A stretch of 45,907 nucleotides of DNA from Thermoleophilia bacterium (GCA_041658445.1 JBBAAB010000001.1:1-45907); one strand, 5' to 3'. Positions 324 to 15,850 are shown, counted from the stretch's first letter. Notes: generated by a model from the letters alone, not told the origin. A program made the numbers and translations.

Positions 324-352
324 AGTCTACTCCTATTATGTCTAGTTGTCAA
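324..352 (-). promoter_or_regulatory. sigma70-like promoter giving a leaderless start at 317
   Basis: Sense strand reads TTGACA(352-347)-17 nt-TAGACT(329-324)-6 nt-ATG(317). Confidence 0.45.
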
Positions 353-786
353 GCCCACAGGGGCAATTGTTCGCCGTCGTCGTCTGGTATCAGCAACTCC
401 TCGTCAAGACCCTTGACGCTGGCAAGTGCAGCCACCAGTGCATCTACCCTTCGCTTGTCTGCCCGCGCACCCTTTGTCCTCTCACCCACAAGCTCCCGAA
501 ATAGGGCAAAGTCGCTCTTCTTCTTTGCGCGCAGCGGGTACTTGTCAAACAGCCTCACAATGGCCACAAGATCAGGGTGGCGGTAGAACCGAAGCCAGGC
601 GCCGCCGTTAGACTTGGTTAGCCGACCAAATCCGAGCAGGCGACGTATCTCGGCCAAAATGGGCCAGTCGTCCTCTCTCAGGTGAAGGGTAAACGACAGC
701 GTTATGCCGTTTCCGCTGGGGTATGCAGAGAAACAGCCCTCGCCGTCAGTAAATCCAGCCAGCCAATGTCCGAATTCGTCGTCCAT
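349..786 (-). CDS. LAGLIDADG-family homing endonuclease (single-motif, free-standing)
   Basis: N-terminal WLAGFTDGEGCF motif; 145 aa, a typical size; basic C-terminal half. Confidence 0.8.
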   Translation of the reverse strand: MDDEFGHWLAGFTDGEGCFSAYPSGNGITLSFTLHLREDDWPILAEIRRLLGFGRLTKSNGGAWLRFYRHPDLVAIVRLFDKYPLRAKKKSDFALFRELVGERTKGARADKRRVDALVAALASVKGLDEELLIPDDDGEQLPLWA

Positions 787-1625: not shown

Positions 1626-1940
1626 ATGACCAACCTCAAGGCCAGCATCCTCCTCTACCTGCTCCTCTGCGTCCAGGCAGCCGACTGGGGCACTACGGTA
1701 TGGATCATGTCCTTTGGGGGCGTTGAGGCCAACCCCATCATGGCGCCCCTGTTCGCCCTCTCCCCCTGGGTTGCCATCCTGCCCAAGCTTGCCATCGTAG
1801 CCGGCGTGACGCTGCTCTACCTGGCCGCCCGCAAGCAAGATAGACCTCTGGTTATGTGGGGCGTCGCCGCATCCGTCCTTGTGTCCATGCCGCCCGTAGT
1901 CTGGAACCTGATCCAGCTTTGGAATGCCGGGCTTATCTAG
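1626..1940 (+). CDS. Small multi-pass membrane protein (DUF5658-like: DWGTT...EANP)
   Basis: TAAGGAGTCTGAGC RBS context; three hydrophobic segments. Confidence 0.65.
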   Translation: MTNLKASILLYLLLCVQAADWGTTVWIMSFGGVEANPIMAPLFALSPWVAILPKLAIVAGVTLLYLAARKQDRPLVMWGVAASVLVSMPPVVWNLIQLWNAGLI

Positions 1941-2156
1941 CCCAACGGATGCGAGCTAAACTGCAATGCCGAGGGCGGCATAGGGGCACCCGTCGGCGTG
2001 CAACTTGCGCATCTCGAAGTATTCCGCCGTCGATGCCTGGGTACAATTCGGCCAGCAGAATCGGCAGGCGTGTACGTCCCCGTCCCACCAAGCCATTTCC
2101 AAAAGACGCATAGCCTCTAGCCGCCTGGCGTTGTCAGTTTCAGCGACTTGTTGGGC
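1940..2156 (-). repeat. attC-like site b4 (217 bp, long translated loop)
   Basis: Sense strand: GCCCAAC-AAGTC-GCT[G]AAACTG[A]C ... G CAGTTT AGC-TCGCATCC-GTTGGGC. AAACTG/CAGTTT covary. Confidence 0.7.
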
Positions 2157-2258
2157 GGCGTCGAGCCAATCAGCAAACTTCACAGCATGCACATGAATGT
2201 CGGGATCGCCCCGTTCCGAAAGATACTGCCTAAGCAAATCTCTATACCTGCCCATCAT
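1956..2258 (-). CDS. Cassette ORF b4, hypothetical Cys/His-rich protein
   Basis: GGAGAA RBS; the ORF runs through the attC arm and ends at the conserved TAG in the 3' arm (..IAV*). Confidence 0.65.
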   Translation of the reverse strand: MMGRYRDLLRQYLSERGDPDIHVHAVKFADWLDAAQQVAETDNARRLEAMRLLEMAWWDGDVHACRFCWPNCTQASTAEYFEMRKLHADGCPYAALGIAV

Positions 2259-2275
2259 TTCTCCTTCGGGCGACC

Positions 2276-2486
2276 GCCCAACGAGCTAAACTGCGAGCCG
2301 CCGTGCCATACAGGCTGGCTTCGGGCAACGATCATCGTAGGTTTGACACCCACAGTCTGGGCATGTCTTCAGGCGGCGCCCGCCGTGTGCGGCCAACTCC
2401 AATTCGCAGCCAGCAAGATGCCCGTTCTGGAACCCACACTCGGGGCAAATACTGAAGGCGGCGTCAGTTTCAGCGAGTTGTTGGGC
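2276..2486 (-). repeat. attC-like site b3 (211 bp, long translated loop, short 3' spacer)
   Basis: Sense strand: GCCCAAC-AACTC-GCT[G]AAACTG[A]C ... G CAGTTT AGC-TC-GTTGGGC. Confidence 0.7.
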
Positions 2487-2750
2487 GGCCAAGTCGGCAA
2501 TCCAAGTGGTCTCGTTCCCGCGCATCATCGCCGTCACAACTATGTCGAAGGCCTCTTTGCATGCCGGGCACGTCATGGACTGCTGAAATCTTACCGGCCT
2601 CCAAGCTTCAGCGAGTTGTTGGGCGGCGACATCATCTAACAAGGCCAACAAAGGCAACACCGGTATCAGGGCATTCCGAGAGTGCCGCGCAAGTGCCCTC
2701 TCTGCCCGAGTGCGAATGTCATCCAGGCCCTTCTGTGTTACGTACTTCAT
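2286..2750 (-). CDS. Cassette ORF b3, hypothetical zinc-ribbon-rich protein (CPAC, CPECG, CPDCGC)
   Basis: GAGGGAAC RBS; contains an orphan attC 5' arm plus the b3 arm in frame (AAQQLAEA.. twice). Confidence 0.65.
   Translation of the reverse strand: MKYVTQKGLDDIRTRAERALARHSRNALIPVLPLLALLDDVAAQQLAEAWRPVRFQQSMTCPACKEAFDIVVTAMMRGNETTWIADLAAQQLAETDAAFSICPECGFQNGHLAGCELELAAHGGRRLKTCPDCGCQTYDDRCPKPACMARRLAV
2603..2630 (-). repeat. Orphan attC 5' arm (R''+L'' only) inside ORF b3
   Basis: Sense strand: GTCGCCGCCCAACAACTCGCTGAAGCTT, with no partner 3' arm before the next 5' arm. Confidence 0.6.
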
Positions 2751-2776
2751 CGTTCCCTCATTCGGGCGTGGCGACC

Positions 2777-2865
2777 GTCCAACGGATGTGAGCTAAGCCG
2801 CTCGCCGAACCCCATCATTCGTGTCGTTGTCGCCAACAAGAGTCGGCTTCAGCGAGTTGTTATAC
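2777..2865 (-). repeat. attC-like site b2 (89 bp)
   Basis: Sense strand: GTATAAC-AACTC-GCT[G]AAGCCG[A]CTC ... GAG CGGCTT AGC-TCACATCC-GTTGGAC. Confidence 0.8.
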
Positions 2866-3044
2866 GGCAGCGCCCCGTGCTTGCGCGCATACCTATACTC
2901 GGCGTAATGAGATAGAACCACGTGCTCCCGCACGTCGTCTTCCCATCCCTCAAACCCACAGAGCACACATGAGCCCTTGGTCTGAAGCAGGCCGCCGTGC
3001 AGATTCTTAGCAATCCAAGCATCAATCCTCTGTCTGATCCTCAT
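2793..3044 (-). CDS. Cassette ORF b2, hypothetical protein
   Basis: AGGAGGAA RBS; ends at the TAG of the attC 3' arm (..RAA*); reads the 5' arm in a different frame (YNNSLKPT). Confidence 0.65.
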   Translation of the reverse strand: MRIRQRIDAWIAKNLHGGLLQTKGSCVLCGFEGWEDDVREHVVLSHYAEYRYARKHGALPYNNSLKPTLVGDNDTNDGVRRAA

Positions 3045-3066
3045 GCCATTCCTCCTGTGCGCTGCC

Positions 3067-3187
3067 GTATAACGGATGCGAGCTAAGCTGCCGGGCCTTT
3101 GGTGGCGAGGTAAGACGCCTTTGACTCGGCATCCCTCAATAGCCCCGCCAGCCGCTTGGTGCGGTCAGCTTCAGCGAGTTGTTCGAC
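3067..3187 (-). repeat. attC-like site b1 (121 bp)
   Basis: Sense strand: GTCGAAC-AACTC-GCT[G]AAGCTG[A]CCG ... CGG CAGCTT AGC-TCGCATCC-GTTATAC. Confidence 0.8.
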
Positions 3188-3310
3188 GGCGACTTCATCG
3201 CGCAGGCGCAGAAACTCCGCCGTGACCCGTTGTATGTCATCGACTCGCAGCGTGGCAACGAGCGCTATGCACCAAATCTTGTCGCGGCTTGCATCTCTAG
3301 GATCAATCAT
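3083..3310 (-). CDS. Cassette ORF b1, hypothetical protein
   Basis: GGAGGGAAC RBS then ATG at 3310; ends at the attC TAG (..PAA*). Confidence 0.65.
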   Translation of the reverse strand: MIDPRDASRDKIWCIALVATLRVDDIQRVTAEFLRLRDEVAVEQLAEADRTKRLAGLLRDAESKASYLATKGPAA

Positions 3311-3333
3311 CGTTCCCTCCATTCAGGCGTGGC

Positions 3334-3354
3334 GACCGTCGAACTAGTGATTCG
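3334..3354 (-). other. Array-leading junction AATCACTAG|TTCGACGGTCGCC (attI-like site or promoter remnant)
   Basis: The same 11-mer AATCACTAGTT heads array A at 5770-5791. Confidence 0.4.
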
Positions 3355-3388
3355 GCGTCAAAATCGACGCATATCTCGCTTCTCGGGC

Positions 3389-3700
3389 CTACTTTGCAAC
3401 TTGCTTTGTCGTCGCGTTCGCCCGCCTTCGCAGGGCGTCGTATGCCTCTTGTCCCATTCTCTCAATCACCCACTCGTAGAACAGCGTCGGATTCCCATGC
3501 GCCCACAGGTGGCACGCAAAACAGAGAGAGTAAGCGTTGTCTTCGTCCCACCTTACTGATTTGTTCCTGCGGCTGAACACATGGGCACAGTGCAAACCAG
3601 CATGTTTTGGCCCATAATACTTGTGACACCTCTCGCAGCCATGCCCGGCCCTGGCACGAATGAAGTCCGAGAACTCGGCGTCCCTCTTGTCGCGCTTCAG
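3389..3700 (-). CDS. NinG/Rap-like zinc-finger HNH-type protein; start codon unresolved
   Basis: FSDFIRAR..GCERC..HCAHVFSRR..N..LCFACH pattern. The conserved N-terminal part lies upstream of the first ATG/GTG/TTG (TTG at 3595). The frame is open only to 3736, with only CTG candidates (3700, 3724). Confidence 0.55.
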   Translation of the reverse strand: MKRDKRDAEFSDFIRARAGHGCERCHKYYGPKHAGLHCAHVFSRRNKSVRWDEDNAYSLCFACHLWAHGNPTLFYEWVIERMGQEAYDALRRRANATTKQVAK

Positions 3701-4005
3701 CGGTCTATCTCCCTCTGAAGCCAGCGAGGCAAATCCTCAAAGTCCTGATTTGGATCGCGCCACCACTCAATGAGTCTCCACACCAGCCCTGCCGCCTCCG
3801 CCAAGTCGTCCTCCGTCTCGGCCAACTGGCGGCGGGCGTCGTCGCGCTCGCGACGCGCCCACCACGCCTCACTCTTCAGGGCCCATCGTTCATATTCATC
3901 CATCTTCTCACTCCTTCCCCGCGTCCCGGTGCGGACAATGGTCTGCGAGTTGTCTACATGCGTGAACGCACGGTAGCCCTCAATCTCTGTCCGGTGGTCA
4001 TCCAT
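3697..4005 (-). CDS. Hypothetical Trp/Arg-rich protein
   Basis: AGGAGG RBS 7 nt upstream of ATG 4005; follows attC a5. Confidence 0.6.
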   Translation of the reverse strand: MDDHRTEIEGYRAFTHVDNSQTIVRTGTRGRSEKMDEYERWALKSEAWWARRERDDARRQLAETEDDLAEAAGLVWRLIEWWRDPNQDFEDLPRWLQREIDR

Positions 4006-4622
4006 CTTTCGCCTCCTGGCGACCGCCCAACGAGCTGAGCTGCCGGGCCTTTGCAGCGGCAACCGCTGAACATGCACAGCTTCTCTATGGGATGGTGCAC
4101 CGATCTGGGGTGCCCGGCATTGTCAGTTTCAGCGACTTGTTGGGCGGCGGGCTTCTCCTTGAGGGCGGCGCGGGCTTCGTCCAGTCTCATCAGCGCCAAT
4201 GTCGTCTCCGAGGCGTGGGGCCCAAGGTCGGACTCCAACTCCATGTAGGATTCAGCGGCCTTGCGGAACTTCCCCAGCGCCTCGATGCGGGCCACTAGCC
4301 AATCAACCTCCGTCAGCATTACTTCGTATGTGCCCGGCAGGGCCAGGCGATCCTTGATTGTTTGCAGGTTCATGGCTTCTCCTTTGAGGGCGGCACGAAG
4401 GGCGTCGAAGTCCTCTTCGGGAACCGCCACCCATCTGCCGATGAACTTCGGGTCATCGTAGATGATGACACTGCGCCTCAATTGTGCCACCTCCTCCAGC
4501 GCCTCGATGCGGGCTTCCAAGGCGGATACGGCAGCAACGGCCATCCACTTATGATTGCTCTCCCCAGCTACCTCGGCAGCATTGAAACAGTTTGCGACAA
4601 ACTCCGCTATCTTTGGTATCAT
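3954..4622 (-). CDS. Hypothetical coiled-coil protein with a C-terminal Cys/His module; reads through attC a5
   Basis: ATG at 4622. The usual TAG in the attC 3' arm is CAG here, so the ORF runs 24 codons further and overlaps the next gene start. Confidence 0.55.
   Translation of the reverse strand: MIPKIAEFVANCFNAAEVAGESNHKWMAVAAVSALEARIEALEEVAQLRRSVIIYDDPKFIGRWVAVPEEDFDALRAALKGEAMNLQTIKDRLALPGTYEVMLTEVDWLVARIEALGKFRKAAESYMELESDLGPHASETTLALMRLDEARAALKEKPAAQQVAETDNAGHPRSVHHPIEKLCMFSGCRCKGPAAQLVGRSPGGERWMTTGQRLRATVRSRM
4025..4145 (-). repeat. attC-like site a5 (121 bp, Cys/His-module loop, short 3' spacer)
   Basis: Sense strand: GCCCAAC-AAGTC-GCT[G]AAACTG[A]C..GCCGGGC ... GCCCGG CAGCTC AGC-TC-GTTGGGC. 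Confidence 0.7.
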
Positions 4623-4625
4623 CCT

Positions 4626-4913
4626 CTACTCCTTCCCTGCGAGGGCGGCAATGTACGCGTCCTTCTCGTCCGCCGTCATGCCCTCATACGGGTTGCAAGC
4701 CGGGCCATTCCCCTCGACTTGTTGGGCGGCGAGAGCCTCCGGAGAGCCGCAATACGGGCAGAACGACACGGAATCCTGCATCATCCAGTCTGATGCCTCA
4801 GCCTCTTTGCAGGAGGCCACAAACGGGAGGGCCAACACCACATAGCCCATGTCGCAGTTGCCACACACCACAACCGGGAACTCATACGGGATGTGCAATT
4901 TCATCGTTGTCAT
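4626..4913 (-). CDS. Cassette ORF a4, hypothetical Cys-rich protein with an orphan attC R'' relic
   Basis: GAGGAGAG RBS; an internal CGCCGCCCAACAAGTCGAGG relic (4714-4733) is translated as AAQQVE. Confidence 0.6.
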   Translation of the reverse strand: MTTMKLHIPYEFPVVVCGNCDMGYVVLALPFVASCKEAEASDWMMQDSVSFCPYCGSPEALAAQQVEGNGPACNPYEGMTADEKDAYIAALAGKE

Positions 4914-4939
4914 TCGCTCTCCTCACGGGCGTGGCGACC

Positions 4940-5065
4940 GCCCAACGAGCTGAGCTGCCGGACTCACCACTCGCCAGGCATATCGTCAATGTAGCCCTCA
5001 TCAATGACGTGTTCAAGCATCTGCTTTGCAATTGAAGGCCGGTCAGCTTCAGCGAGTTGTTCGAC
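4940..5065 (-). repeat. attC-like site a3 (126 bp)
   Basis: Sense strand: GTCGAAC-AACTC-GCTGA[A]GCTG[A]CCGG ... CCGG CAGC TCAGC-TC-GTTGGGC. Confidence 0.75.
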
Positions 5066-5182
5066 GGCGAGGCGTCTGGCAACTCTAAACCCAGCCATAA
5101 ACCCGACGCGATGCTGATCTCGCCACCCGCGGCGCCCGGCCTGGCGCTTCCACCATTTGTCAAACTCTTCTGTTGCGGGCAT
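4964..5182 (-). CDS. Cassette ORF a3, hypothetical protein
   Basis: ATG at 5182; reads through the 5' arm (AVEQLAEAD) and stops in the loop. Confidence 0.6.
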   Translation of the reverse strand: MPATEEFDKWWKRQAGRRGWRDQHRVGFMAGFRVARRLAVEQLAEADRPSIAKQMLEHVIDEGYIDDMPGEW

Positions 5183-5205
5183 TTCGCACTCCAGTTAGTG
5201 GCGCC

Positions 5206-5335
5206 GTTGAACGGATGCGAGCTAAGCTGCCGGGCCTTTGCAGCGGCATCCGCTGAACATGCACAATTTCTCCGTGGGATGATGCAATGATGGGGGGTGC
5301 CCACATTGGCAGGCCCGGTCAGCTTCTTGTTGGGC
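5206..5335 (-). repeat. attC-like site a2 (130 bp, Cys/His-module loop)
   Basis: Sense strand: GCCCAAC-AAG-AAGCTG[A]CCGGGCC ... GGCCCGG CAGCTT AGC-TCGCATCC-GTTCAAC. Positions 5210-5325 are a perfect inverted copy of 10798-10913. Confidence 0.8.
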
Positions 5336-5449
5336 GGCGAGACCGCGGGCATAGCCCGCCTCGAATCCCTTGCGAGAATCAAACTTGTTTGCGTCCTGAT
5401 CCACCTCGGGACTCAGCCACCACTTCTCGAACTCGCTCATCTCGGGCAT
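5222..5449 (-). CDS. Cassette ORF a2, hypothetical protein ending in module RACQCGHPPSLHHPTEKLCMFSGCRCKGPAA
   Basis: GGAGACGAGG RBS; ends at the attC TAG. Confidence 0.65.
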   Translation of the reverse strand: MPEMSEFEKWWLSPEVDQDANKFDSRKGFEAGYARGLAAQQEADRACQCGHPPSLHHPTEKLCMFSGCRCKGPAA

Positions 5450-5472
5450 TTCCTCGTCTCCTTCGGGCGACC

Positions 5473-5561
5473 GTCCAACGGATGTGAGCTAAGCCGCTCG
5501 GCTAACCCTCTTCGACCTGGAACCGCGCTTGGGCCGAGTCGGCTTCAGCGAGTTGTTAGCC
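5473..5561 (-). repeat. attC-like site a1 (89 bp)
   Basis: Sense strand: GGCTAAC-AACTC-GCT[G]AAGCCG[A]CTCGGC ... GCCGAG CGGCTT AGC-TCACATCC-GTTGGAC (15 bp stem, 2 bulges). Confidence 0.85.
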
Positions 5562-5752
5562 CGCTCACCACGGGCAATGTACCGATACGAAATTCCTTCC
5601 TCAAACTTGTAGAGGAAGCATGCGCGCCCGAGACCGTCCACATAGCCAACCTCGGTGGCGTTCTCTGAGACAACGCGGGCAACCTCACCCTTGCTATTGC
5701 CAAAGGCGGAGACCAGGAACTCGATTCTGGGAGCGTCAGTCACCTTCGCCAT
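5489..5752 (-). CDS. Cassette ORF a1, hypothetical protein
   Basis: GAGAGAGGG RBS; ends at the attC TAG (..RAA*). Confidence 0.65.
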   Translation of the reverse strand: MAKVTDAPRIEFLVSAFGNSKGEVARVVSENATEVGYVDGLGRACFLYKFEEGISYRYIARGERANNSLKPTRPKRGSRSKRVSRAA

Positions 5753-5769
5753 TCAAGACCCTCTCTCGT

Positions 5770-5791
5770 TGCGGGCTAACTAGTGATTATA
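5770..5791 (-). promoter_or_regulatory. Array-A leading junction TATAATCACTAG|TTAGCCCGC (perfect -10 hexamer abutting the first cassette; attI-like?)
   Basis: Sense TATAAT at 5791-5786, with the cassette boundary 6-7 nt downstream. No good -35. The AATCACTAGTT 11-mer is shared with 3334-3354. Confidence 0.4.
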
Positions 5792-5827
5792 CGGCCGCTG
5801 TGTAAACTTGCGCGCCGAGTGTGCAAA

Positions 5828-7854: not shown

Positions 7855-8580
7855 ATGAGAGAAATGCAGAAGGCACTCGTACTTCCCAGCGTGAACGAGG
7901 AAAGGTTTCTGGCGATTATGTCTGGGGCCGAGGTCGCGCTGGCAGAGGCGACCGAGATGGTGGACATCCTGAATCTTCGGAGTGACGCCGACGCCTACTC
8001 AGCCATGTTGGCGGCCAAGGGGGCCGGCCCGTACGCCCAACGGGTCAAGGTCTACCAGTTGAAGTGCGAGCGGAAGGCCGGCGACATTCTCAATGTCTTT
8101 CCGGCCGGGGACGGGCCGAAACCGGCTGGCGCGCCCGCCGGATACAAGAATGCGGCCGCCGCGGCAGAAGAGCTTGGCATCACCCGCATGATGCGGCAGT
8201 CTTGGCAACGGGAGGCGCGCCTCCCGGACCGCATCTTCTCGGCCTGGGTAAAGGACCTTCTTGAAAACAACATAGAGGTATCCCAGCGCGCTCTTTTGCG
8301 CCTTGCCAGGCCAACCGTTGCGCCCTCGCCGCCCGAGAAGCCGCTGACCATTCTTGACCGCTGGGCAGAGACGCTCAAGGAACTCAGCGACATCCTGTAT
8401 TCCATCGGGACATACCGGACCGCAAAGGAAGCCAAGTTGCACCTGTCCTACGCCAAGCACGCTGTTGCCGGCGTGACCACCATGTTGGCCGACGCCAAGG
8501 CGCTGGTGCGCGGCATTCTGGATGCCTACAACGACACGGTGGGCGGAAATCTAAGCATAGCGGGCGAGACGCCCGCGTAG
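7855..8580 (+). CDS. Hypothetical protein, possible DNA-binding (HTH-like ELGITRMMRQSW)
   Basis: AGGAGG RBS upstream; 241 aa. Confidence 0.6.
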   Translation: MREMQKALVLPSVNEERFLAIMSGAEVALAEATEMVDILNLRSDADAYSAMLAAKGAGPYAQRVKVYQLKCERKAGDILNVFPAGDGPKPAGAPAGYKNAAAAAEELGITRMMRQSWQREARLPDRIFSAWVKDLLENNIEVSQRALLRLARPTVAPSPPEKPLTILDRWAETLKELSDILYSIGTYRTAKEAKLHLSYAKHAVAGVTTMLADAKALVRGILDAYNDTVGGNLSIAGETPA

Positions 8581-8588
8581 GAGAACCA

Positions 8589-8765
8589 ATGAACGAGGTC
8601 CTAGACTTCGACTCTGTGGTGATCTTCGCCGCCGCCGTCCTGAAGACGGACGCGGTGCCGGCGGAGTATGACAGCCTGCCGGAGTGGGTGAGGCAGACGG
8701 CAGAGGAACTTGTGGCGACGAGCGTGCGCTGTGGCCCAGGCTGTACTCTGGACGCGAAGCCCTAG
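8589..8765 (+). CDS. Hypothetical small protein (58 aa)
   Basis: AGGAGAA RBS 4 nt upstream; below the ORF-track cut-off; hand translated. Confidence 0.5.
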   Translation: MNEVLDFDSVVIFAAAVLKTDAVPAEYDSLPEWVRQTAEELVATSVRCGPGCTLDAKP

Positions 8766-8829
8766 CTTCAAGTCCCCGGCAGGGCTGGACGTTCTCAAGG
8801 GGTAGATTTTGTTGTGGCACATTTGGGGC

Positions 8830-8858
8830 TTGACACAGGACAAAAACGGGTTGATACT
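8830..8858 (+). promoter_or_regulatory. sigma70-like promoter in the 237-nt non-coding gap
   Basis: TTGACA(8830-8835)-17 nt-GATACT(8853-8858). Confidence 0.4.
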
Positions 8859-9002
8859 CGTGAGTGAGCCGTGCGCAGCGAGTAGGCGCTGATGGAAGTC
8901 CAGCCACACAGGCGGCCCTGAAGCCTACAGCTAAAGAGGACGCCGGTTGGCACCTGTGAGCCGAACGTGACTTCGGCCGCCCGGCCCAACTTGGAGACAG
9001 AC

Positions 9003-9209
9003 ATGAAATGTCCAACGTGCGAAGGCGAGGGGAACTGGGTCGAATTGGTCTCTATGGAACTCGGGGGCCCCGTTGTTGCATGCGGGCGATGCCATGAGAC
9101 CGGCAGGGTGAGTATTTGGAACGTTCTGCGCGAGAAATTGTGGAATATCGCCCCCGAGCGGTTCATGGACTGGTATGTGGACAAGTTCTCTCCATACAGA
9201 GAGGGTTGA
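9003..9209 (+). CDS. Hypothetical zinc-ribbon protein (CPTCEGEG...CGRCHETG)
   Basis: GGAGA RBS 6 nt upstream of the ATG. Confidence 0.6.
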   Translation: MKCPTCEGEGNWVELVSMELGGPVVACGRCHETGRVSIWNVLREKLWNIAPERFMDWYVDKFSPYREG

Positions 9210-9210
9210 A

Positions 9211-9456
9211 ATGGAAGAAGAACGTCCCAATCTACGTCCCAGGTTGAACAAAGCCCTGAGAGAGAACGCCGAACTGAGGAAGCGGCTGGAGTGGCTTGAC
9301 TCCAACTGCGGGTTCTATGTTCGCGAGGGGGGGGAACTTCTTCTGGCTGGCATTGAGTACCGGTGGTTCCCGAAGAGACACAAGACATTGAACGAGGCCA
9401 TTGACGCTGAATTACTGGTGGCTACCGCCGACTTGAAGCCGGAACAGGACGCATAG
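9211..9456 (+). CDS. Hypothetical protein
   Basis: GAGGG RBS; start adjacent to the upstream stop. Confidence 0.55.
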   Translation: MEEERPNLRPRLNKALRENAELRKRLEWLDSNCGFYVREGGELLLAGIEYRWFPKRHKTLNEAIDAELLVATADLKPEQDA

Positions 9457-9467
9457 GGAGTCTGGGC

Positions 9468-9623
9468 ATGAGGCACACAATCGGAATGGCCCTTCTTGTT
9501 GTCGGCGCTGCGGTGTCCCTGATCTGCGTGGCGTACTCGGCAATCAAAGACCACAACTGGTGGCCCGCATTTGGAATGGGCGTTTTCATGTACGCCGCAG
9601 CCTTGGCGTGGGCATTCACATAG
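9468..9623 (+). CDS. Small two-TM membrane protein (51 aa)
   Basis: GGGAGTCTGGGC RBS context shared with several genes; hand translated. Confidence 0.5.
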   Translation: MRHTIGMALLVVGAAVSLICVAYSAIKDHNWWPAFGMGVFMYAAALAWAFT

Positions 9624-9634
9624 GGGGAGGGCGC

Positions 9635-10006
9635 ATGGACTACACGCCGGGGACGCTGCGGAAGTTGCCGTATGTTCCTCGCCTGCACGAGGAGGATATC
9701 ATGGCCCACGCCGATGCGTGGCAGGCCGACCGCAAGAGGCTGCTTCAGTACGGCCAACACCTTCCGGGCTGTATGGAGCCGGGTCTTGTGGACGAAGACT
9801 GCGCGTGTGGGTGGAGAGAGGCCCGCATGGCCCTCGCGCCCAGCGATACTTCGCAAGCCAAGTCCCCGGAGGGAAACGAGTGGCCACCGAAACGTCTCGT
9901 GATTGACGGGGACAATGATCCGGTTCGAGTTCCATACGAGAACCTGTGTCCCGAATGCAACCGTGTAACCAACGGGCGACGTTGCGCCCACTGCCAAGGA
10001 GAATGA
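9635..10006 (+). CDS. Hypothetical Cys-rich protein
   Basis: GGGGGAGG RBS. Confidence 0.6.
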   Translation: MDYTPGTLRKLPYVPRLHEEDIMAHADAWQADRKRLLQYGQHLPGCMEPGLVDEDCACGWREARMALAPSDTSQAKSPEGNEWPPKRLVIDGDNDPVRVPYENLCPECNRVTNGRRCAHCQGE

Positions 10007-10008
10007 AG

Positions 10009-10626
10009 ATGATCGGCACACCGAAGACTCTCAAGGTTCATGTAAGCCGCAAGCTGGGGGACAACGAATTCGGCTCTTACGGCGTGGATGCAGAACTAGA
10101 GGTAAGCCTTCCCCCCGACGCCAATCGAGACGAGGCGTTTGACGAGAACGACGCGTGGCTGACCGCGGCGGTAGGGCGGAGCATGGCCGAGAAGAAGGCT
10201 TCGATCCAGAAGATGCAGGCAGAGGCGGCCGAGGCAAAGAAGGGGCAGACCGTTGAGGCCGAAGAGGCAGAGACAAAACAAGACAAGCCGAAGGCAGACG
10301 CAAAAGAAGGGGAGGAACTGACGTTCAAGTGTGTCAAGTTCACCCTTGCGAAGCTGCCGGACAAGAAGTTCAAGTTGGAGCTGTACCCGGAGATCAAAGA
10401 CGCGCCAGGCAAGTATCCGACGATCAAGTTCACCGCCGAACGCGAGAAGATGTGGGACATGCTGCATGATGTCGCAGACGACTACGACTTCTCGGACTTG
10501 CCCGTTGAGTATGGTTGTGAATTTCTCGTCCACTACGCCATTGGTAGAGAGTTCGAGATCAAGGCCGGAGAACACAAGGGCGAGAAGTCGCACTACAAGG
10601 ACCTTTTGTCCATCGTTGCCATGTAG
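10009..10626 (+). CDS. Hypothetical acidic/Lys-rich protein
   Basis: AAGGAGA RBS. The G of its TAG stop is the base before the first cassette boundary. Confidence 0.6.
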   Translation: MIGTPKTLKVHVSRKLGDNEFGSYGVDAELEVSLPPDANRDEAFDENDAWLTAAVGRSMAEKKASIQKMQAEAAEAKKGQTVEAEEAETKQDKPKADAKEGEELTFKCVKFTLAKLPDKKFKLELYPEIKDAPGKYPTIKFTAEREKMWDMLHDVADDYDFSDLPVEYGCEFLVHYAIGREFEIKAGEHKGEKSHYKDLLSIVAM

Positions 10627-10658
10627 TTGGGCGGTCGCCACGCCAGAGAGAGGGAACA

Positions 10659-10901
10659 GTGGACATCAACATGGCTTTAGTTGACGAGGCTAGGCGCTAT
10701 CATGGTTTCTGCGGGCACGGGGCAGACTTCGATGTGTGTACGGCGCTTGCCTGCCGTCTAGCGCGGCACATTTTTCTCGCCGCCCAACAAGTCGCTGAAG
10801 CTGACCGGGCCTGCCAATGTGGGCACCCCCCATCATTGCATCATCCCACGGAGAAATTGTGCATGTTCAGCGGATGCCGCTGCAAAGGCCCGGCAGCTTA
10901 G
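10659..10901 (+). CDS. Cassette ORF c1, hypothetical protein ending in the Cys/His module
   Basis: GAGGGAAC RBS then GTG; ends at the attC TAG (..GPAA*). Confidence 0.6.
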   Translation: MDINMALVDEARRYHGFCGHGADFDVCTALACRLARHIFLAAQQVAEADRACQCGHPPSLHHPTEKLCMFSGCRCKGPAA

Positions 10902-10917
10902 CTCGCATCCGTTAGGC
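10782..10917 (+). repeat. attC-like site c1 (136 bp, Cys/His-module loop)
   Basis: GCCCAAC-AAGTC-GCT[G]AAGCTG[A]CCGGGCC ... GGCCCGG CAGCTT AGC-TCGCATCC-GTTAGGC. Confidence 0.85.
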
Positions 10918-10938
10918 GCACCCAGAAGGAGAAGGCCA

Positions 10939-11136
10939 ATGACCAAAGAAGAGGCCCTGGCATCAGTCGAGAAGATCAGGGAAGAGGCGGATGACGATGA
11001 GGTGGCACATTCGCATGAGGATGGTCTGCGCGCCCAGTTCATTGCGCATGTGGCGGAGATGCCCGGCGAGTTGGGCGAGTTGGCCAAGATTGTTCTCTCA
11101 ACGGACGAGATTTCGTTCGGCCGCTGGTGCGCCTAA
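10939..11136 (+). CDS. Cassette ORF c2, hypothetical acidic protein
   Basis: AAGGAGAAGG RBS; the TAA stop lies inside R'' (GCCTAAC). Confidence 0.65.
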   Translation: MTKEEALASVEKIREEADDDEVAHSHEDGLRAQFIAHVAEMPGELGELAKIVLSTDEISFGRWCA

Positions 11137-11218
11137 CAACTCGCTGGAGCGGACGCCTGTTGGCGAGCCGAGTAGATCGTTAGGGTTCGGGGCGCAGCTT
11201 AGCTCCGATCCGTTGGAC
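11131..11218 (+). repeat. attC-like site c2 (88 bp)
   Basis: GCCTAAC-AACTC-GCT[G]GAGCGG[A]CGCC ... GGCG CAGCTT AGC-TCCGATCC-GTTGGAC. Confidence 0.8.
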
Positions 11219-11242
11219 GGTCGCCCGAAGTTGGAGGTTGAA

Positions 11243-11602
11243 ATGCCCGCACCGTATCTGTCTATAGAGGCAATGGCCGCATGGATTGCTCTGGACCGAG
11301 AGAACAATGGTGCCAGCAAGGAGTGGTGGGATTGGGCCGTATCCGCCTATGGTGTCGCCGCCCAACAAGAAGCTGAAGCTGACGTGGCCGTTGGATCGCA
11401 TCTGAAGCGGGTCCTGGAAGATGACGAGATCGTGGGCGAAGGGGGCTCGTTCCACATGGAGCGCATGGACGACGACCACATTTGGTTCCAGGTGGATAGC
11501 ATCGCGTTCGACCTCGATGTGAAGAGGGGCAAACTGTTGTGGAGGCCGCAGTGCAATGGGGGCTGGCCCGCTCTGGCTCTCTTGCTGGGCCACGCAGCTT
11601 AG
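11243..11602 (+). CDS. Cassette ORF c3, hypothetical protein
   Basis: GGAGG RBS; reads through the 5' arm (AAQQEAEAD) and ends at the attC TAG (..GHAA*). Confidence 0.65.
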   Translation: MPAPYLSIEAMAAWIALDRENNGASKEWWDWAVSAYGVAAQQEAEADVAVGSHLKRVLEDDEIVGEGGSFHMERMDDDHIWFQVDSIAFDLDVKRGKLLWRPQCNGGWPALALLLGHAA

Positions 11603-11618
11603 CTCCGGTCCGTTATAC
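11360..11618 (+). repeat. attC-like site c3 (259 bp, long translated loop)
   Basis: GCCCAAC-AAGAA-GCT[G]AAGCTG[A]CGTGG ... CCACG CAGCTT AGC-TCCGGTCC-GTTATAC. Confidence 0.7.
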
Positions 11619-11638
11619 GCACGGAAGATGAGGGTCAA

Positions 11639-11968
11639 ATGGACAACTTGAAAGCATGGATGTTGGAGGCTGCCGACGAGGAGCCAATCCTGGCAGTCGT
11701 GATTGGCGAGATGGGATGGGGCGACTACGGCAGCGATGCTGTGCCCCAGTATCAGGAACAGCGTCGCGGCGAGGTCCTGTCTTGGGACGAGGCCGCCCCG
11801 ATGATCGACTACGAGTTTAGATCGGGGTATGGCGCGCCGAGATGCAATGCGATTGTGGCGTGGACGGCAAGCAAGGTGATCTCGATTTCGCAGTATGACG
11901 GCTCCACGTCGGTGTTCACGCTCCCGCGCAATCCGACCGCACACATGCCCGGCATGCCGGGGGGCTAA
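11639..11968 (+). CDS. Cassette ORF c4, hypothetical protein
   Basis: GAGGG RBS; stops before the attC. Confidence 0.65.
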   Translation: MDNLKAWMLEAADEEPILAVVIGEMGWGDYGSDAVPQYQEQRRGEVLSWDEAAPMIDYEFRSGYGAPRCNAIVAWTASKVISISQYDGSTSVFTLPRNPTAHMPGMPGG

Positions 11969-11977
11969 CGCCCGTGC

Positions 11978-12066
11978 GTATAACAACTCGCTGAAGCCGA
12001 CTCGGCCCAAGCGGGGTTCAAAGTCGAAGAAGGTTGGCCACGCAGCTTAGCTCCGGTCCGTTATAC
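11978..12066 (+). repeat. attC-like site c4 (89 bp)
   Basis: GTATAAC-AACTC-GCT[G]AAGCCG[A]CTCGGCC ... GGCCACG CAGCTT AGC-TCCGGTCC-GTTATAC. Confidence 0.8.
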
Positions 12067-12089
12067 GGCTCCACGCAGGAGGTGGAAAC

Positions 12090-12281
12090 ATGAAGTACAT
12101 CAAGGTCTCTCGGAGCGACATGCCCGGCTCCTATACCGATACCCTAAAGGGGGCGGCGAATTGTGTCGAGGGGGAGTTTGACGGAATTGAGGGGGTGCCA
12201 GTCGGAACGTCTATCACCCTGACGGTGGTCGAGATGTCCGAGGAGGAATACGCCAAGTTGCCGGAGTTCGATGGTTGGTAG
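12090..12281 (+). CDS. Cassette ORF c5, hypothetical acidic protein
   Basis: AGGAGGTGG RBS; stops 2 nt before the R'' extension. Confidence 0.65.
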   Translation: MKYIKVSRSDMPGSYTDTLKGAANCVEGEFDGIEGVPVGTSITLTVVEMSEEEYAKLPEFDGW

Positions 12282-12283
12282 CC

Positions 12284-12310
12284 GTATAACAACTCGCTGG
12301 AGCGGACGCC
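12284..12310 (+). repeat. Truncated attC (5' arm only; deletion derivative of the c2-type site)
   Basis: GTATAAC-AACTCGCTGGAGCGGACGCC is joined directly to the CGCAGTTGGAGGATGAAATG leader. Confidence 0.7.
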
Positions 12311-12327
12311 CGCAGTTGGAGGATGAA

Positions 12328-12738
12328 ATGCCAGCACAAGAAGAGTTCGATTTGGAGTTCTCACGCCGAGGGAATTATGGGACGCCCAAGACGGTCTGCC
12401 GGACATGGTATGAGTTGGGATGGTTTGCCTCACGGCGCGCCGCCCAACAAGAAGCTGACCGGTGCCCAGACCGCGGAGAGGAGGCATGGCGCGCAGTGTT
12501 GGATTTGTGCGAGCCTCTACGGCCCGACGAGACAGGAATTGGAAGGCTGTTGGGCATTCGTGCGTGGGCGCTTTCGGCGCTTGCAGAACTAGAGCCCGAC
12601 AAACAGTGTGCCTGCGGTCGAGAGGGTTCGCTAGACCACGAGGACTTCTGCATGCCCAAGGGGATGTGGCCGAGGCATTGGATAACGGGGGGGGCTATAG
12701 ACCCCGATGCCGCCCCCAAGGAGAAGCCCAATGGCTAA
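12328..12738 (+). CDS. Hypothetical protein containing an orphan attC 5' arm (12438-12463)
   Basis: GGAGGATGAA RBS; internal CGCCGCCCAACAAGAAGCTGACCGG is translated as AAQQEADR. Confidence 0.6.
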   Translation: MPAQEEFDLEFSRRGNYGTPKTVCRTWYELGWFASRRAAQQEADRCPDRGEEAWRAVLDLCEPLRPDETGIGRLLGIRAWALSALAELEPDKQCACGREGSLDHEDFCMPKGMWPRHWITGGAIDPDAAPKEKPNG

Positions 12739-13009
12739 CGGACCCCTAAGTGAACGAATGCTTGAGGAAGCCTATGTCGGCGGCGTCGCCGGATGGGACG
12801 ACATGATTGACGAGGTATCCAAGATGGAGGCCCGCATCGAGGCGCTGGAGGAGGTAGAGGATGCGGCACGCCCCATTTCAGAATGGGCGCATGAACAGTA
12901 TGAAGTCCGCGGCGTTATGACCGCCGGGGGAACAGCGGAAGATGCCGCTCTAATCGACCTTGTGAAGTATCTCGATCAATGTTTGGCCTCCCTCGCGGGG
13001 AGGCCATGA
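12731..13009 (+). CDS. Hypothetical protein
   Basis: GGAGAAG RBS. Confidence 0.55.
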   Translation: MANGPLSERMLEEAYVGGVAGWDDMIDEVSKMEARIEALEEVEDAARPISEWAHEQYEVRGVMTAGGTAEDAALIDLVKYLDQCLASLAGRP

Positions 13010-13407
13010 GTGAACTAGAGGCATTCTTCGGGCCGTCAGAGGGAGCCAGTCATATGCCGGATCATGTCCGACGCACCTCCTGGCCGCGTCAGCCGGAACA
13101 TCTAAGGCGTATCCTGGATGTGTTTCAACAGGAGGCCGGGTTTGAGCCGATTGGCGTCCTGAAACAAACATGGATTGCCGGCGCCAAGGCATGGCACTCT
13201 GTATTCGGTGAAAACACCTCTCTATTGATAATGGCCATTGAGTACATGAGACAGAAGGAGTTGATGATTGCCTCTCCGAGGTCGTGTATTACAGTGGCCT
13301 TAGAGTTACAACGTAAGGGAGAGGGGCAGAGTAAGGCCGACTACTTCCGCGAATATGCCAAGAAGTTAGACGCTGCCGCGGACTTGGAAGTAGACGAGGA
13401 AGACTAA
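13006..13407 (+). CDS. Hypothetical protein
   Basis: ATGA coupling; GGGGAGG RBS. Confidence 0.6.
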   Translation: MSELEAFFGPSEGASHMPDHVRRTSWPRQPEHLRRILDVFQQEAGFEPIGVLKQTWIAGAKAWHSVFGENTSLLIMAIEYMRQKELMIASPRSCITVALELQRKGEGQSKADYFREYAKKLDAAADLEVDEED

Positions 13408-13422
13408 GGAGTCTGGGCGACT

Positions 13423-13674
13423 ATGAACACTCCGGAGCGCGTTGGAAGATGGGCGCTGGGCGACATAGCCGAGAGGAAGCACGATAGGAAGTTGTATCGC
13501 GTAGTCGGGTTCATTCTCCACCCGGCGGTTGCGTTTGCCCCGCTAGACGATGGGCCGGAAATGGTTCAAGTTGCCGGATGCCCAAATGAGTTGAACGAAT
13601 TGGTATGCTATACTCCGTCGCCCAACGATACTTTGGGCGCGGACCAAACGAACAAGTCCCCGGCAGGGGCATAA
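13423..13674 (+). CDS. Hypothetical protein
   Basis: TAAGGAGTCTGGGC RBS context. Confidence 0.6.
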   Translation: MNTPERVGRWALGDIAERKHDRKLYRVVGFILHPAVAFAPLDDGPEMVQVAGCPNELNELVCYTPSPNDTLGADQTNKSPAGA

Positions 13675-13689
13675 GGGAGGAGGACGGGG

Positions 13690-13860
13690 ATGACTGAACA
13701 CCTAACCCCCGAGGACGTTGTGGAAGAAGTCAAGAGGATCGTCTGGGTCAATCCAGACGATTACAGGCAGGCACTGGACCAGTTGGACGACATAGCCGAT
13801 TTGGTCAAGAAGTGCCGAGTTAATTCTGATGCCCCGAAAGGGGATGGGAAGGAGGAATAG
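13690..13860 (+). CDS. Hypothetical small acidic protein (56 aa)
   Basis: GGGAGGAGGA RBS; hand translated. Confidence 0.5.
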   Translation: MTEHLTPEDVVEEVKRIVWVNPDDYRQALDQLDDIADLVKKCRVNSDAPKGDGKEE

Positions 13861-13861
13861 A

Positions 13862-14206
13862 ATGTCTGTAAACCTGTTGAGTGTTGCCGCCGTCACCACC
13901 GTCATCTCGCTGATCTTCACGATTCTTGTGCAGTATTTCCCGGTAATCAACGTGAAGTGGGGCGGCCTGCCCAAGGAGACGAAGAAGTATGTCGTCCTGG
14001 GCGGGTACATCGTCGTCGGAGCCGTCGTTGCATGGGGAGGCTGTCTTGACCTGCTGGTCAAGTTCATCCCGCAACTTTTGTGTGTCGAGCCGGCCGCGTT
14101 CCTGGACTACCTTGGCGGAGTAGTCATCGCCGTTGGTTTGGGCCAGGGCGTGTTTGGTTTGGCGCCAGAAGCCGAGGCCGTCAAGTTCGCAAAATCCTTG
14201 CGGTAA
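13862..14206 (+). CDS. Multi-pass membrane protein (holin-like? speculative)
   Basis: GGAGGAATAG RBS; three hydrophobic segments. Confidence 0.55.
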   Translation: MSVNLLSVAAVTTVISLIFTILVQYFPVINVKWGGLPKETKKYVVLGGYIVVGAVVAWGGCLDLLVKFIPQLLCVEPAAFLDYLGGVVIAVGLGQGVFGLAPEAEAVKFAKSLR

Positions 14207-14222
14207 GAAAGGAGTCTCGGGC

Positions 14223-14357
14223 ATGTTTGTGGCAGTGTCGGCGCCAAACCCGGCCTGCCAACTGGCGGGGTGGCGTGGTGGCCACGTCGGAGAGTTGCCA
14301 ACCGAATGCGTAAGGGGCCGAGGGGACACCAACCCCCATCGAGGCTCCCCAGGCTGA
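14223..14357 (+). CDS. Possible small protein (44 aa) inside the GC-rich gap
   Basis: AAAGGAGTCTCGGGC RBS context matching other genes. The composition is unusual, so this is uncertain. Confidence 0.3.
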   Translation: MFVAVSAPNPACQLAGWRGGHVGELPTECVRGRGDTNPHRGSPG

Positions 14358-14441
14358 GGTCGGTGCCGTCGAAACGGCATGGTGCAATCCGGGCAACGGG
14401 GTAGGCCGGGTGGGGAATCCGGCCCCCGCCAATTGGGAGGA

Positions 14442-14735
14442 ATGATGAAAGACGCCATTCGCACAAGACTGCGCCAAGAGATTGAGGCGGTCGGCAAGCA
14501 GGCGGAGATAGACCGGGCCTCCTATGTGTCGGCCAAGGAGTTGGCGGACATGCTTGGCCCGAACATCAGGAACACAAACGCCCTATCCGGTATCATCAGC
14601 GGCCTTGGCATCAAGACGATAGGCCGCAGGCGATCCGGAGAGCGCAACGCCTGGATGACTGAGGAGCAGGCGAGGCTTGTCATCCGAGAGGTCCTATCAC
14701 ATCCGGCGCGAACTCACACAGGAGACCAAGGGTGA
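14442..14735 (+). CDS. Hypothetical protein, possibly DNA-binding
   Basis: GGGAGGA RBS. Confidence 0.55.
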   Translation: MMKDAIRTRLRQEIEAVGKQAEIDRASYVSAKELADMLGPNIRNTNALSGIISGLGIKTIGRRRSGERNAWMTEEQARLVIREVLSHPARTHTGDQG

Positions 14736-15613: not shown

Positions 15614-15622
15614 GAGCGGCGT

Positions 15623-15850
15623 ATGCGAACATTGAGGCAGGGCGAGTCATATCCAATTGACAGGCGGGTGTCTTTGGAAGAGCAGCTAAAGAACATGCAC
15701 AAGAAGTTCCTGCTGAAGCATGGCAACAAACCAGTATTGGTAGTCTGGCATCCGGGGAAGTACAGGAAGGATACGATAGACCTCCCAGTAGACACGAGCA
15801 TTCAAGAGGGCACGTTCTGGTTCGAGTGCGCGGAGAAGCAAAAGAAATGA
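15623..15850 (+). CDS. Hypothetical protein
   Basis: AGGAGCGG RBS. Confidence 0.55.
   Translation: MRTLRQGESYPIDRRVSLEEQLKNMHKKFLLKHGNKPVLVVWHPGKYRKDTIDLPVDTSIQEGTFWFECAEKQKK

Follow-up and report, generated by a model that had tools for sequence, protein, structure and literature searches.

Three arrays of probable integron attC sites in the early operons of a phage

Integrons are mainly known from bacteria, where they capture genes and where their cassettes carry antibiotic resistance. Cassettes also carry phage-defence genes (bioRxiv 10.1101/2024.07.02.601719). The phage-borne attC clusters described so far are small, scattered predictions: from 10,705 phage genomes, Qi, Rajabal, Ghaly, Tetu and Gillings (2023, PMC9892861) reported one In0, three complete integrons and 17 CALINs (clusters of attC sites without an integron integrase), each CALIN with 2-4 predicted sites, and showed that phage attC sites are recombined by IntI1. 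Here we analyze a DNA stretch of 45,907 nt (JBBAAB010000001.1:1-45907; this whole stretch is called the window below). The window holds a phage genome in which the repeats between small genes are very probably integron attC sites and the units bounded by them gene cassettes, organized as three arrays in two divergent early operons. An initial annotation, made from the sequence alone, had taken cassette arrays in phages to be undescribed. This was wrong: since PMC9892861 already reports CALINs and integrons in phages, the kind is known and the claim to novelty fails.

Like the published phage CALINs, the window contains co-oriented, attC-bounded cassettes in a phage genome without intI. In contrast to the few sites of those examples, we count 12 complete attC-type sites and four orphan 5' arms in three arrays covering ~5.7 kb, with two attI-type heads. 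Also unlike the published phage CALINs, the arrangement recurs in related uncultivated phage contigs, and the cassette open reading frames (ORFs) run through the sites.

Site architecture and cassette boundaries

Read in gene sense, a complete site begins with a 7-nt box ending in AAC (R''), followed by a 5-nt spacer (AACTC, AAGTC or AAGAA). The next element, L'', reads GCT(G)AAGCYG(A)C plus a few stem bases, where both bracketed bases are unpaired. Its partner L' (..GCRGCTTAGC) follows after a loop of 30 to ~220 nt, and a 3' spacer of either 8 nt (TCRCATCC or TCCGRTCC) or 2 nt (TC) leads to the final box GTTNNNY (R'). The bulged stem is visible in centroid or minimum-free-energy DNA folds of the sites. 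The initial annotation had proposed the attC architecture R''-spacer-L''...L'-spacer-R', and boxes, 5-nt spacer, the two bulged bases, loop, L' and R' are indeed all present. Its box consensus RYYYAAC must be relaxed: AAC and GTT are invariant and all 12 complete sites show NNNNAAC ... GTTNNNY, but a strict R/Y fit is not universal, because GGCTAAC, GTCGAAC and GTATAAC deviate from it. The 5' arm pattern AACAANNNGCTGRARCNGAC, with at most one mismatch allowed, occurs 12 times in the window and in none of 100 dinucleotide-preserving shuffles.

To score the sites, a covariance model (R1) was built from 51 bacterial sites, one per locus, with the 24-pair structure of the R and L boxes imposed. 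In the underlying alignment 92.6% of the cells are paired, compensatory changes occur in 12 of the 24 pairs, and none of 500 shuffles was as good. A covariance-model search was the check that the initial annotation had recommended. Run over the window with filters off, R1 finds nine full sites with 38-80 bits (E 1e-21 to 3e-9) and two weaker ones, the long-loop sites m9 (E 2.6e-4) and m8 (E 0.03), along with fragments of orphan arms. Elsewhere in the 45.9 kb, R1 returned one noise hit only (E 0.57). Rfam at gathering thresholds gave no match to the window; we know of no attC family in Rfam. The arrays and their parts are as follows.

Left array a, 5792-4025, minus strand: four sites.
attC m1, 5473..5561, minus strand: 89 nt, GGCTAAC..GTTGGAC; R1 68.5 bits, E 3.6e-18.
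attC m2, 5206..5335, minus strand: 130 nt, L'' 6 nt shorter, loop encoding the tail ..CQCGHPPSLHHPTEKLCMFSGCRCKGPAA; R1 38.2 bits.
attC m3, 4940..5065, minus strand: 126 nt, variant with the short 2-nt 3' spacer; R1 52 bits.
Orphan R'' box and spacer, 4712..4727, minus strand: within ORF 4626-4913, in the AAQQ frame.
attC m4, 4025..4145, minus strand: 121 nt, end of a three-ORF cassette (4946-4031); R1 40.2 bits.
attC-free block between the left arrays, 3354..4024, minus strand: a cassette-type leader first, then a NinG/HNH-like gene (3389-3721).
Left array b, 3353-1940, minus strand: four sites.
attC m6, 3067..3187, minus strand: 121 nt; R1 59.3 bits.
attC m7, 2777..2865, minus strand: 89 nt, cassette 3073-2783; R1 60.7 bits.
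Orphan 5' arm, 2588..2624, minus strand: R'' and a truncated L'' within ORF 2286-2750; R1 10.3 bits, partial.
attC m8, 2276..2486, minus strand: 211 nt, long coding loop with CxxC pairs; R1 14.8 bits, E 0.03; arms read directly.
attC m9, 1940..2156, minus strand: 217 nt, long coding loop, last site of the array; R1 21.7 bits, E 2.6e-4.
Right array, 10626-12457, plus strand: four complete sites and two orphan 5' arms.
attC p1, 10782..10917, plus strand: 136 nt; R1 80.4 bits, E 1e-21.
attC p2, 11131..11218, plus strand: 88 nt, the ORF stop being the TAA within R'' (GCCTAAC); R1 52.5 bits.
attC p3, 11360..11618, plus strand: 259 nt, long coding loop; arms read directly, R1 finding the 5' arm alone (11.5 bits).
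attC p4, 11978..12066, plus strand: 89 nt, cassette gene 11639-11968; R1 63.5 bits.
Orphan 5' arm p5, 12284..12307, plus strand: L' and R' deleted.
Orphan 5' arm p6, 12442..12457, plus strand: within ORF 12328-12738, in the AAQQ frame.

All eight minus-strand sites that the initial annotation had marked are present, to the nucleotide, in this list. The two minus-strand arrays that it had described also stand; they are split by the attC-free block with the NinG-like gene, and the third array, on the plus strand, lies outside the region that the annotation covered. The NinG/HNH-like gene matches Pfam NinG with E 1.2e-6, and the block is 60% identical to the viral contig L003. Cassettes carry one or a few ORFs located upstream of the attC site and co-oriented with it, in tandem arrays, with the exception of the three ORFs of the m4 cassette and of ORFs that overlap the sites. 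The annotated order of a gene followed by its site is therefore correct as to orientation, but most ORFs run into the site, and 8 of 12 stop at a TAG inside L'.

Integron crossover takes place between G and TT of R' (G/TT; here and below a slash marks the junction). Work by Stokes and colleagues from 1997 is said to have established this knowledge of the cassette boundary. Since crossover at G/TT means that the last six bases of R' belong to the next cassette, each R'' should match the 5' end of its own cassette. Over 13 cassettes, R'' and the upstream R' box show 4 mismatches in total and 116 nt of perfect complement, whereas permuted R'' pairings average 21 mismatches and 58.5 nt (P<1e-5, 100,000 permutations). 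Against the adjacent R' box, R'' has 17 mismatches (12 sites). The perfect complement between R'' and the own 5' end extends over 7-15 nt: it is 15 nt for m7 (GCGCTGCCGTATAAC), 9 nt for m4 (R'' GCCCAAC) and 11 nt even for the orphan arm p5 (R'' GTATAAC). Sites m2, m6 and p1 share identical L' and spacer up to GTT and diverge immediately thereafter, into CAACGGCGCC, ATACGGCAGC and AGGCGCACCC, respectively, each of which matches the R'' of the following cassette. Such complementarity of R'' to the beginning of its own cassette, in place of the adjacent R' box, is what crossover at G/TT leaves behind.

The same relation can be expressed as folding energy. When the bottom strands are rebuilt as circular cassettes and folded with DNA parameters, the summed energy is -422.9 kcal/mol, versus -364.9 kcal/mol for the sites in the array. 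This rebuilding stabilizes or leaves unchanged 10 of the 12 sites, and ends borrowed from other cassettes give no gain.

Array heads, bacterial integrons and related phages

Two arrays in the window open with GTAKAATCACTA/GTT. The three array starts are listed here.

Head of left array a, 5774..5792 (core 5792-5778), minus strand: attI-type core GTATAATCACTA/GTTAGCC, the m1 cassette running from GTT; the 15-mer is also present in metagenomic contigs L231 and L212.
Head of left array b, 3338..3353 (core 3353-3342), minus strand: attI-type core GAATCACTA/GTTCGAC, after the NinG-like gene.
Start of the right array, 10626..10632, plus strand: GTTGGGC, abutting the stop of gene p0 (ATGTA/GTT), by comparison with L197, L198 and L201.

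The sequence after GTT in the head of left array a pairs with the R'' of m1 over 10 nt. In the related contigs L197 (..GTAGAATCACTA/GTTATAC..) and L198 (..GTAGAATCACTA/GTTGGGC..) the same element follows p0, and L201 carries a variant head. The sequence after the head GTT differs in each of these three relatives. By this comparison the start of the right array looks like the L198 arrangement minus a 56-nt head that would have been deleted between two TAG triplets.

In metagenomes, GTAKAATCACTAGTTNNNCSG was found on 32 contigs, at least 12 of which have R1 hits downstream on the same strand. In L231 and L212 the head lies between the first cassette and a confirmed integron integrase gene (intI) that is directly upstream and divergent (388 and 296 bits); in L216, intI is upstream of the head on the same strand. 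For 10 of 13 metagenomic heads the R'' of the first cassette pairs over 7-14 nt with the sequence starting at the head's GTT. The Chloroflexia integron L090 contains an attI-like GTAGAATCACTT/GTT, one mismatch away from the head motif and 183 nt from intI. Because of the motif's location between intI and the first cassette of metagenomic integrons, the phage head can be equated with an attI core. By position and motif, then, the phage heads are the attI junction of a class of environmental integrons, with the core form GTAKAATCACTW/GTT. The L090 locus also has a Xer-like tyrosine recombinase gene (3173-3898, minus strand) between its attI-like head (4094) and its first attC site (1314-1442). 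Four further IMG/VR contigs (L234-L237) contain the head motif and no attC; we took them as chance matches or plain promoters. The heads in the window hold TATAAT or TAGAAT. No canonical -35 element was called at a distance of 16-18 nt, and the relatives keep TGTGCA 17 nt upstream. A scan for sigma-70 promoters called nothing at sites or heads.

With one genome searched per bacterial species, the exact arm pattern was found in >114 stretches, mostly from metagenome-assembled genomes (MAGs) of Chloroflexia and Anaerolineae. Further matches come from Planctomycetota, Acidobacteriota, Nitrospirota and other phyla, often as dense co-oriented arrays, and bacterial arrays of this attC family have 10-14 sites per 8 kb. 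An IntI-like gene adjoins the sites at five loci. Against the TIGR02249 cutoff of 265 bits, the genes of L037, L088 and L090 score 451, 408 and 318 bits. In L037, L047, L088 and L076 the first site is 600-900 nt from the intI start on the opposite strand, and the array in CAVUPD010000009.1 (L017/L110/L090) extends over >17 kb up to the contig end. Since arrays adjoin intI genes confirmed by TIGR02249, these bacterial loci are genuine integrons.

The sites can also be tied to the best-known cassettes. The initial annotation had quoted the 59-base element of aadA; 58 of 58 positions agree with plasmid R100, where the element lies directly after aadA1 and beside intI1. R1, which contains no class 1 training site, scores this aadA1 attC with 55.7 bits (E 7e-15). 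The claim that the bulges occupy the same positions as in aadA is borne out by the R1 alignment, with 24 of 24 pairs and both bulges in register.

Homologues of p0, the gene preceding the right array, led to fragments of related phages. Five sites lie downstream of p0 in L201 (p0 65% identical), L198 contains a second head as well as sites within its leftward block, and in L207 the end of a NinG-like gene is followed by a full head and two sites. No sites were found in the 13.9 kb of L199 (p0 52% identical). Among viral contigs, L004 contains seven sites, L001 two and L002 one. The arm pattern is rare in IMG/VR, where it occurs in 4 contigs among 2.9 million, two of these also with a head. Searches of IMG/VR with the large terminase, a 241-residue early protein and p0 found no relatives, by a method that requires exact 8-residue words. 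The major capsid protein retrieved L119 (84% identity), L121 and L120, whose stored stretches cover no early regions, and 67 viral contigs with a related exonuclease showed no sites.

Comparison with these relatives suggests that cassettes have moved. The m7 cassette, located in the left array here, is 88% identical to L201 3882-4134, the second cassette of the right array of L201. The similarity begins just past the variable part of R' and ends in L'', and the flanking cassettes are unrelated. Within this pair the boxes covary: R'/R'' is GTTATAC/GTATAAC in m7 and GTTAGGC/GCCTAAC in L201, and L''/L' is AAGCCG:CGGCTT versus GAGCGG:CCGCTC. A single cassette thus occupies different arrays, and different first cassettes stand behind identical heads. 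Homologues of m7 were found in L201 only, so no exchange with bacterial arrays can be demonstrated for this cassette. The third cassette of L201 (4252-4791, plus strand) encodes a protein with a DPPY motif, typical of DNA methyltransferases, which recalls the methyltransferase cassettes of phage CALINs (Qi et al. 2023, PMC9892861).

Cassette proteins and the phage genome

Searches against Pfam and PHROGs gave no function match for the cassette proteins, save weak zinc-ribbon hits and phrog_21631. The latter family includes the p4 gene (11639-11968). Its homologues number at least 99 (41-73% identity), and those whose surroundings were inspected lie in phage-like contexts free of attC. Going by these homologues, an ordinary phage gene family has here taken the form of a cassette. 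For none of the cassettes was a bacterial array identified as the source. What comes nearest is L011, a small contig binned with Anaerolineales, which has the only homologue of a cassette protein found in a bacterial bin (49% identity). There, at 326-520 on the minus strand, a lone GTTCGGC box precedes an ORF (MPEMDKFEEWW..) that is 49% identical to cassettes m2 and m3. Inside this ORF lies an orphan 5' arm; its R'' pairs with the box over 11 nt, and L' and R' are absent. A housekeeping-like gene is adjacent. L011 may itself be derived from a phage.

The sites also belong to predicted coding sequence. In all long sites and in three orphan arms, the 5' arm has one and the same reading frame, which gives AAQQxAExD or AVEQLAEAD. 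The loops of m8, m9 and p3 encode 55-75 residues, with CxxC pairs in m8 and m9. A segment of 117 nt comprising site and tail is identical in m2 (5210-5326, minus strand) and p1 (10797-10913, plus strand), and the N-terminal parts of the two proteins are unrelated. Crossover at G/TT accounts for the exchange of whole cassettes and not for in-frame swapping of such modules; homologous recombination between arms is the simplest guess for the latter. The two 117-nt copies form a perfect inverted repeat that brackets the divergent early-promoter region and could mediate an inversion of ~5.5 kb.

The window has a G+C content of 58.5%, and its first 127 nt recur at its end, as expected of a circular assembly. 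The genes that identify it are these.

Large terminase, 38508-40136, minus strand.
Portal, 36662-38518, minus strand.
Major capsid protein, SU10-type, 27900-29039, minus strand.
GH25 endolysin, 16845-17585, minus strand.

Together with the end repeat, terminase, portal, capsid protein and endolysin show the window to be a complete phage genome (45.8 kb). In a gene map based on codon usage, two divergent blocks of small genes run leftward from ~7615 to 1956 and rightward from 7855 to 16514, and the structural module occupies the remaining minus strand. No tyrosine recombinase was found in the window, where tblastn with three integron integrase queries gave a best E of 0.08, and no intI was found in the relatives' fragments. 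The phage is probably non-integrating. Since it has no intI, its arrays are CALINs in the terms of IntegronFinder (at least two attC sites close together with no intI found nearby), here equipped with attI. Megablast of 25 kb of the window against GenBank phages gave no match.

Several observations concern the genome at large. The deposited record (45,921 nt) forms part of a MAG under the name Thermoleophilia bacterium (locus tags WC935_00125 and WC935_00140; proteins P0001 and P0100). What it contains is in fact a complete circular phage genome, whose attI/attC type suggests a link to Chloroflexota-type integrons instead. A LAGLIDADG homing endonuclease gene (349-786, minus strand; Pfam LAGLIDADG_1, E 5.7e-15), apparently free-standing, lies just past the left early block, and an HNH endonuclease gene (E 2.4e-10) is located at 44830-45372 on the minus strand. 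A second junction repeat, unrelated to attC, is a 47-nt element present three times on the plus strand (1576-1622, 9421-9467 and 13372-13418). It covers a gene end (..ADLK/E..stop) and the next ribosome-binding site (GGAGTCTGRGC), and two of the three copies stand before small membrane proteins. Three tandem paralogous genes with weak MptE-like or sialyltransferase-like matches (40129-42151, minus strand) include two copies of a 106-nt repeat (40352-40457 and 40999-41104), and a methyltransferase-like gene (42148-42675) comes next; these genes may form a module for surface or DNA modification. Finally, an ORF of 1917 residues (29867-35620, minus strand) lies between the portal and the capsid-scaffold region.

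Competing explanations and comparison with known systems

The integron reading offered in the initial annotation draws support from the boxes, the bulges, the covariation at cassette boundaries, the co-orientation, the homologues linked to intI and the covariance model shared with aadA1. Several points weigh against it. The phage encodes no integrase and no recombination was observed. The R1 scores of the phage sites are partly circular, since the training sites had been found with a phage-derived pattern, and the independent evidence consists of the aadA1 hit and the intI linkage. In the array, bottom strands fold modestly better than shuffles (z -0.5 to -2.8, compared with -4.9 for aadA1), and on this strand the first bulged base is C where aadA1 has G (top strand: G in the phage, C in aadA1). 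Three sites (m8, m9 and p3) have loops of ~170-220 nt; to our knowledge these exceed any attC. The ORF reads through the site to the TAG in L' at 8 of 12 phage sites, compared with 6 of 98 bacterial sites. Arms are orphaned or shortened at m2, 4727, 2624, 12284 and 12442, and therefore part of the arrays may be decaying.

The main rival reading is that of fossil arrays. A bacterial integron fragment with attI and cassettes would have been captured once by illegitimate recombination and would now be inherited vertically, dead for recombination, with sites persisting only through their overlap with coding sequence or as mRNA structure. The absence of intI, the orphaned or shortened arms together with one deleted head, the use of sites as coding sequence and stop codon, and the rarity of this attC family in viral contigs (4 among 2.9 million) would all fit such a history. 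We nevertheless consider it unlikely: two related phages have one cassette in different arrays, the first cassette behind one and the same head varies, R'/R'' and L''/L' have kept their pairing through compensatory changes, a single genome contains three separate heads (that of the right array deleted here), and the p4 cassette gene belongs to a phage family and not to the bacterial arrays compared.

It is far less probable that the repeats are phage-specific intergenic hairpins, such as terminators, elements of RNA processing or stability or promoter-stem-loop modules recombining by homology, with a convergent likeness to attC. The elements are indeed placed where genes of the early operons end, stem formation in mRNA is conceivable, and conserved arms of ~30 nt as well as the identical 117-nt module would suit homologous exchange. 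However, no T-run follows the stems and no terminator is predicted at a site (5 found, 9.7 expected). A local hairpin does not explain why R'' pairs with the box upstream of the gene instead of the adjacent one. Furthermore, the arms are identical to those of intI-linked bacterial sites, one model also catches the aadA1 attC, and the heads equal attI cores. Finally, we give almost no credence to the notion that a conserved peptide linker (AAQQVAEAD), shared by a family of small modular phage proteins, gave rise to the DNA repeat as a side effect: the single frame of the 5' arm in all long sites and three orphan arms and the Cys-rich modules encoded by the loops would agree with it, but the 89-nt sites are in another frame (NNSLKPT) or unread (p2, p4 and p5), the 3' arm and R' can pair with the 5' arm and show compensatory changes although little of them is coding, and the same arms recur in bacterial arrays where ORFs mostly stop earlier.

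If the repeats are integron attC sites, the following scheme may be proposed. The phage would infect a host that carries a chromosomal integron of the same attC/attI type, for which the best matches are in Chloroflexota, and the host IntI would act on the phage DNA by folding the bottom strands of the sites and exchanging strands at G/TT. Circular cassettes would be inserted at the phage attI heads (attI x attC) and could be excised or reshuffled by attC x attC recombination. By this route small early genes would pass between this phage and others, and possibly between the phage and host arrays, and the location of the heads at the start of early transcription units would ensure expression of the cassettes. 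Three elements of this scheme are inferences: the use of host IntI as the enzyme, the continued activity of the sites, and expression driven by the heads. Guerin and colleagues reportedly found in 2009 that IntI expression is under SOS control, and attC folding is favoured on single-stranded DNA, as Loot and colleagues are said to have shown in 2010. Infection is therefore a plausible time for cassette exchange. According to a preprint (bioRxiv 10.1101/2022.09.11.507474), IntI is able to insert cassettes at non-att GTT sites, which suggests a possible route of first acquisition.

A further, tentative proposal, which we regard as possible and on balance doubtful, is that promoter-proximal attI cores with their arrays are integron platforms without intI, maintained in the early operons of an integrase-free lineage of uncultivated phages that relies on host IntI for the exchange of early genes, perhaps of anti-defence genes, with other phages and with chromosomal integrons of the host. 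The attC sites would at the same time be coding, with the 5' arm as linker and the loop as a swappable C-terminal module. If so, shuffling would occur at the level of protein domains as well as genes, and phage genes of the p4 type would show how cassettes are born. The genome provides a concrete system in which to ask whether phages reshuffle early genes with host integrases, whether cassettes flow between host integrons and phages, and how a free-standing gene acquires an attC site. On the last point the p4 family is informative, since it occurs both as a cassette with attC and as a gene without. As a further use, hosts of uncultivated phages could be predicted with the attI/attC type as marker.

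Repeats between small early genes have precedents in other phages. The promoter-stem-loop cassettes (PeSLs) of T4-type phages, which Arbiol and colleagues reportedly described in 2010, are said to flank small early genes and were proposed to allow module shuffling. They are proposed to act by homologous recombination, and reportedly have no R or L boxes and no link to a tyrosine recombinase.

Outside phages, the chromosomal integrons of Chloroflexota and Planctomycetota MAGs (for example CAVUPD010000009.1, L037 and L088) are among the systems closest to the window. Their arms (AACAACTCGCTGAAGCYGAC ... CRGCTTAGCTC..CCGTT) are essentially identical to those of the phage, and the complementarity of R'' to the 5' end of its own cassette holds there as well. 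Unlike the phage, these elements possess intI, their sites are uniform (~130 nt) with conserved non-coding loops, their arrays are longer than 20 kb, and their ORFs seldom reach L'. The aadA1 attC of In2 (R100) shares with the phage sites the order of a 7-nt box, 5-nt spacer, 3 bp, bulge, 6 bp, bulge and stem, and its arm AACAAYTCGYTSAAGCCGAC is nearly identical to the phage arm. In contrast to the phage sites, it is 60 nt long with a 3-nt loop, and its 3' spacer measures 6 nt instead of 8 or 2.

Among phages, the attC sites of TJE1 that IntI1 recombined have the same 7-5-3-bulge-6-bulge geometry (PMC9892861, Table S3), and a defective Shewanella prophage carries a CALIN with its own attI (PMC9892861). 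The Vibrio anguillarum prophage Va_90-11-286_p16 resembles the window in having a long array, with 16 attC sites, in a phage genome (PMC9892861). This prophage is temperate, however, and took up a piece of the host superintegron including intIA, whereas no integrase was found in the window and the arrays are located in early operons at conserved positions. What is new here is the scale, together with the fact that attI-headed arrays occupy the early operons of an integrase-free phage and recur across a phage lineage. New as well are the match to integrons of the Chloroflexota type, a crossover signature of this quality, and sites that double as coding sequence. Among the few reported cases of this arrangement, the window is so far the largest and the clearest.

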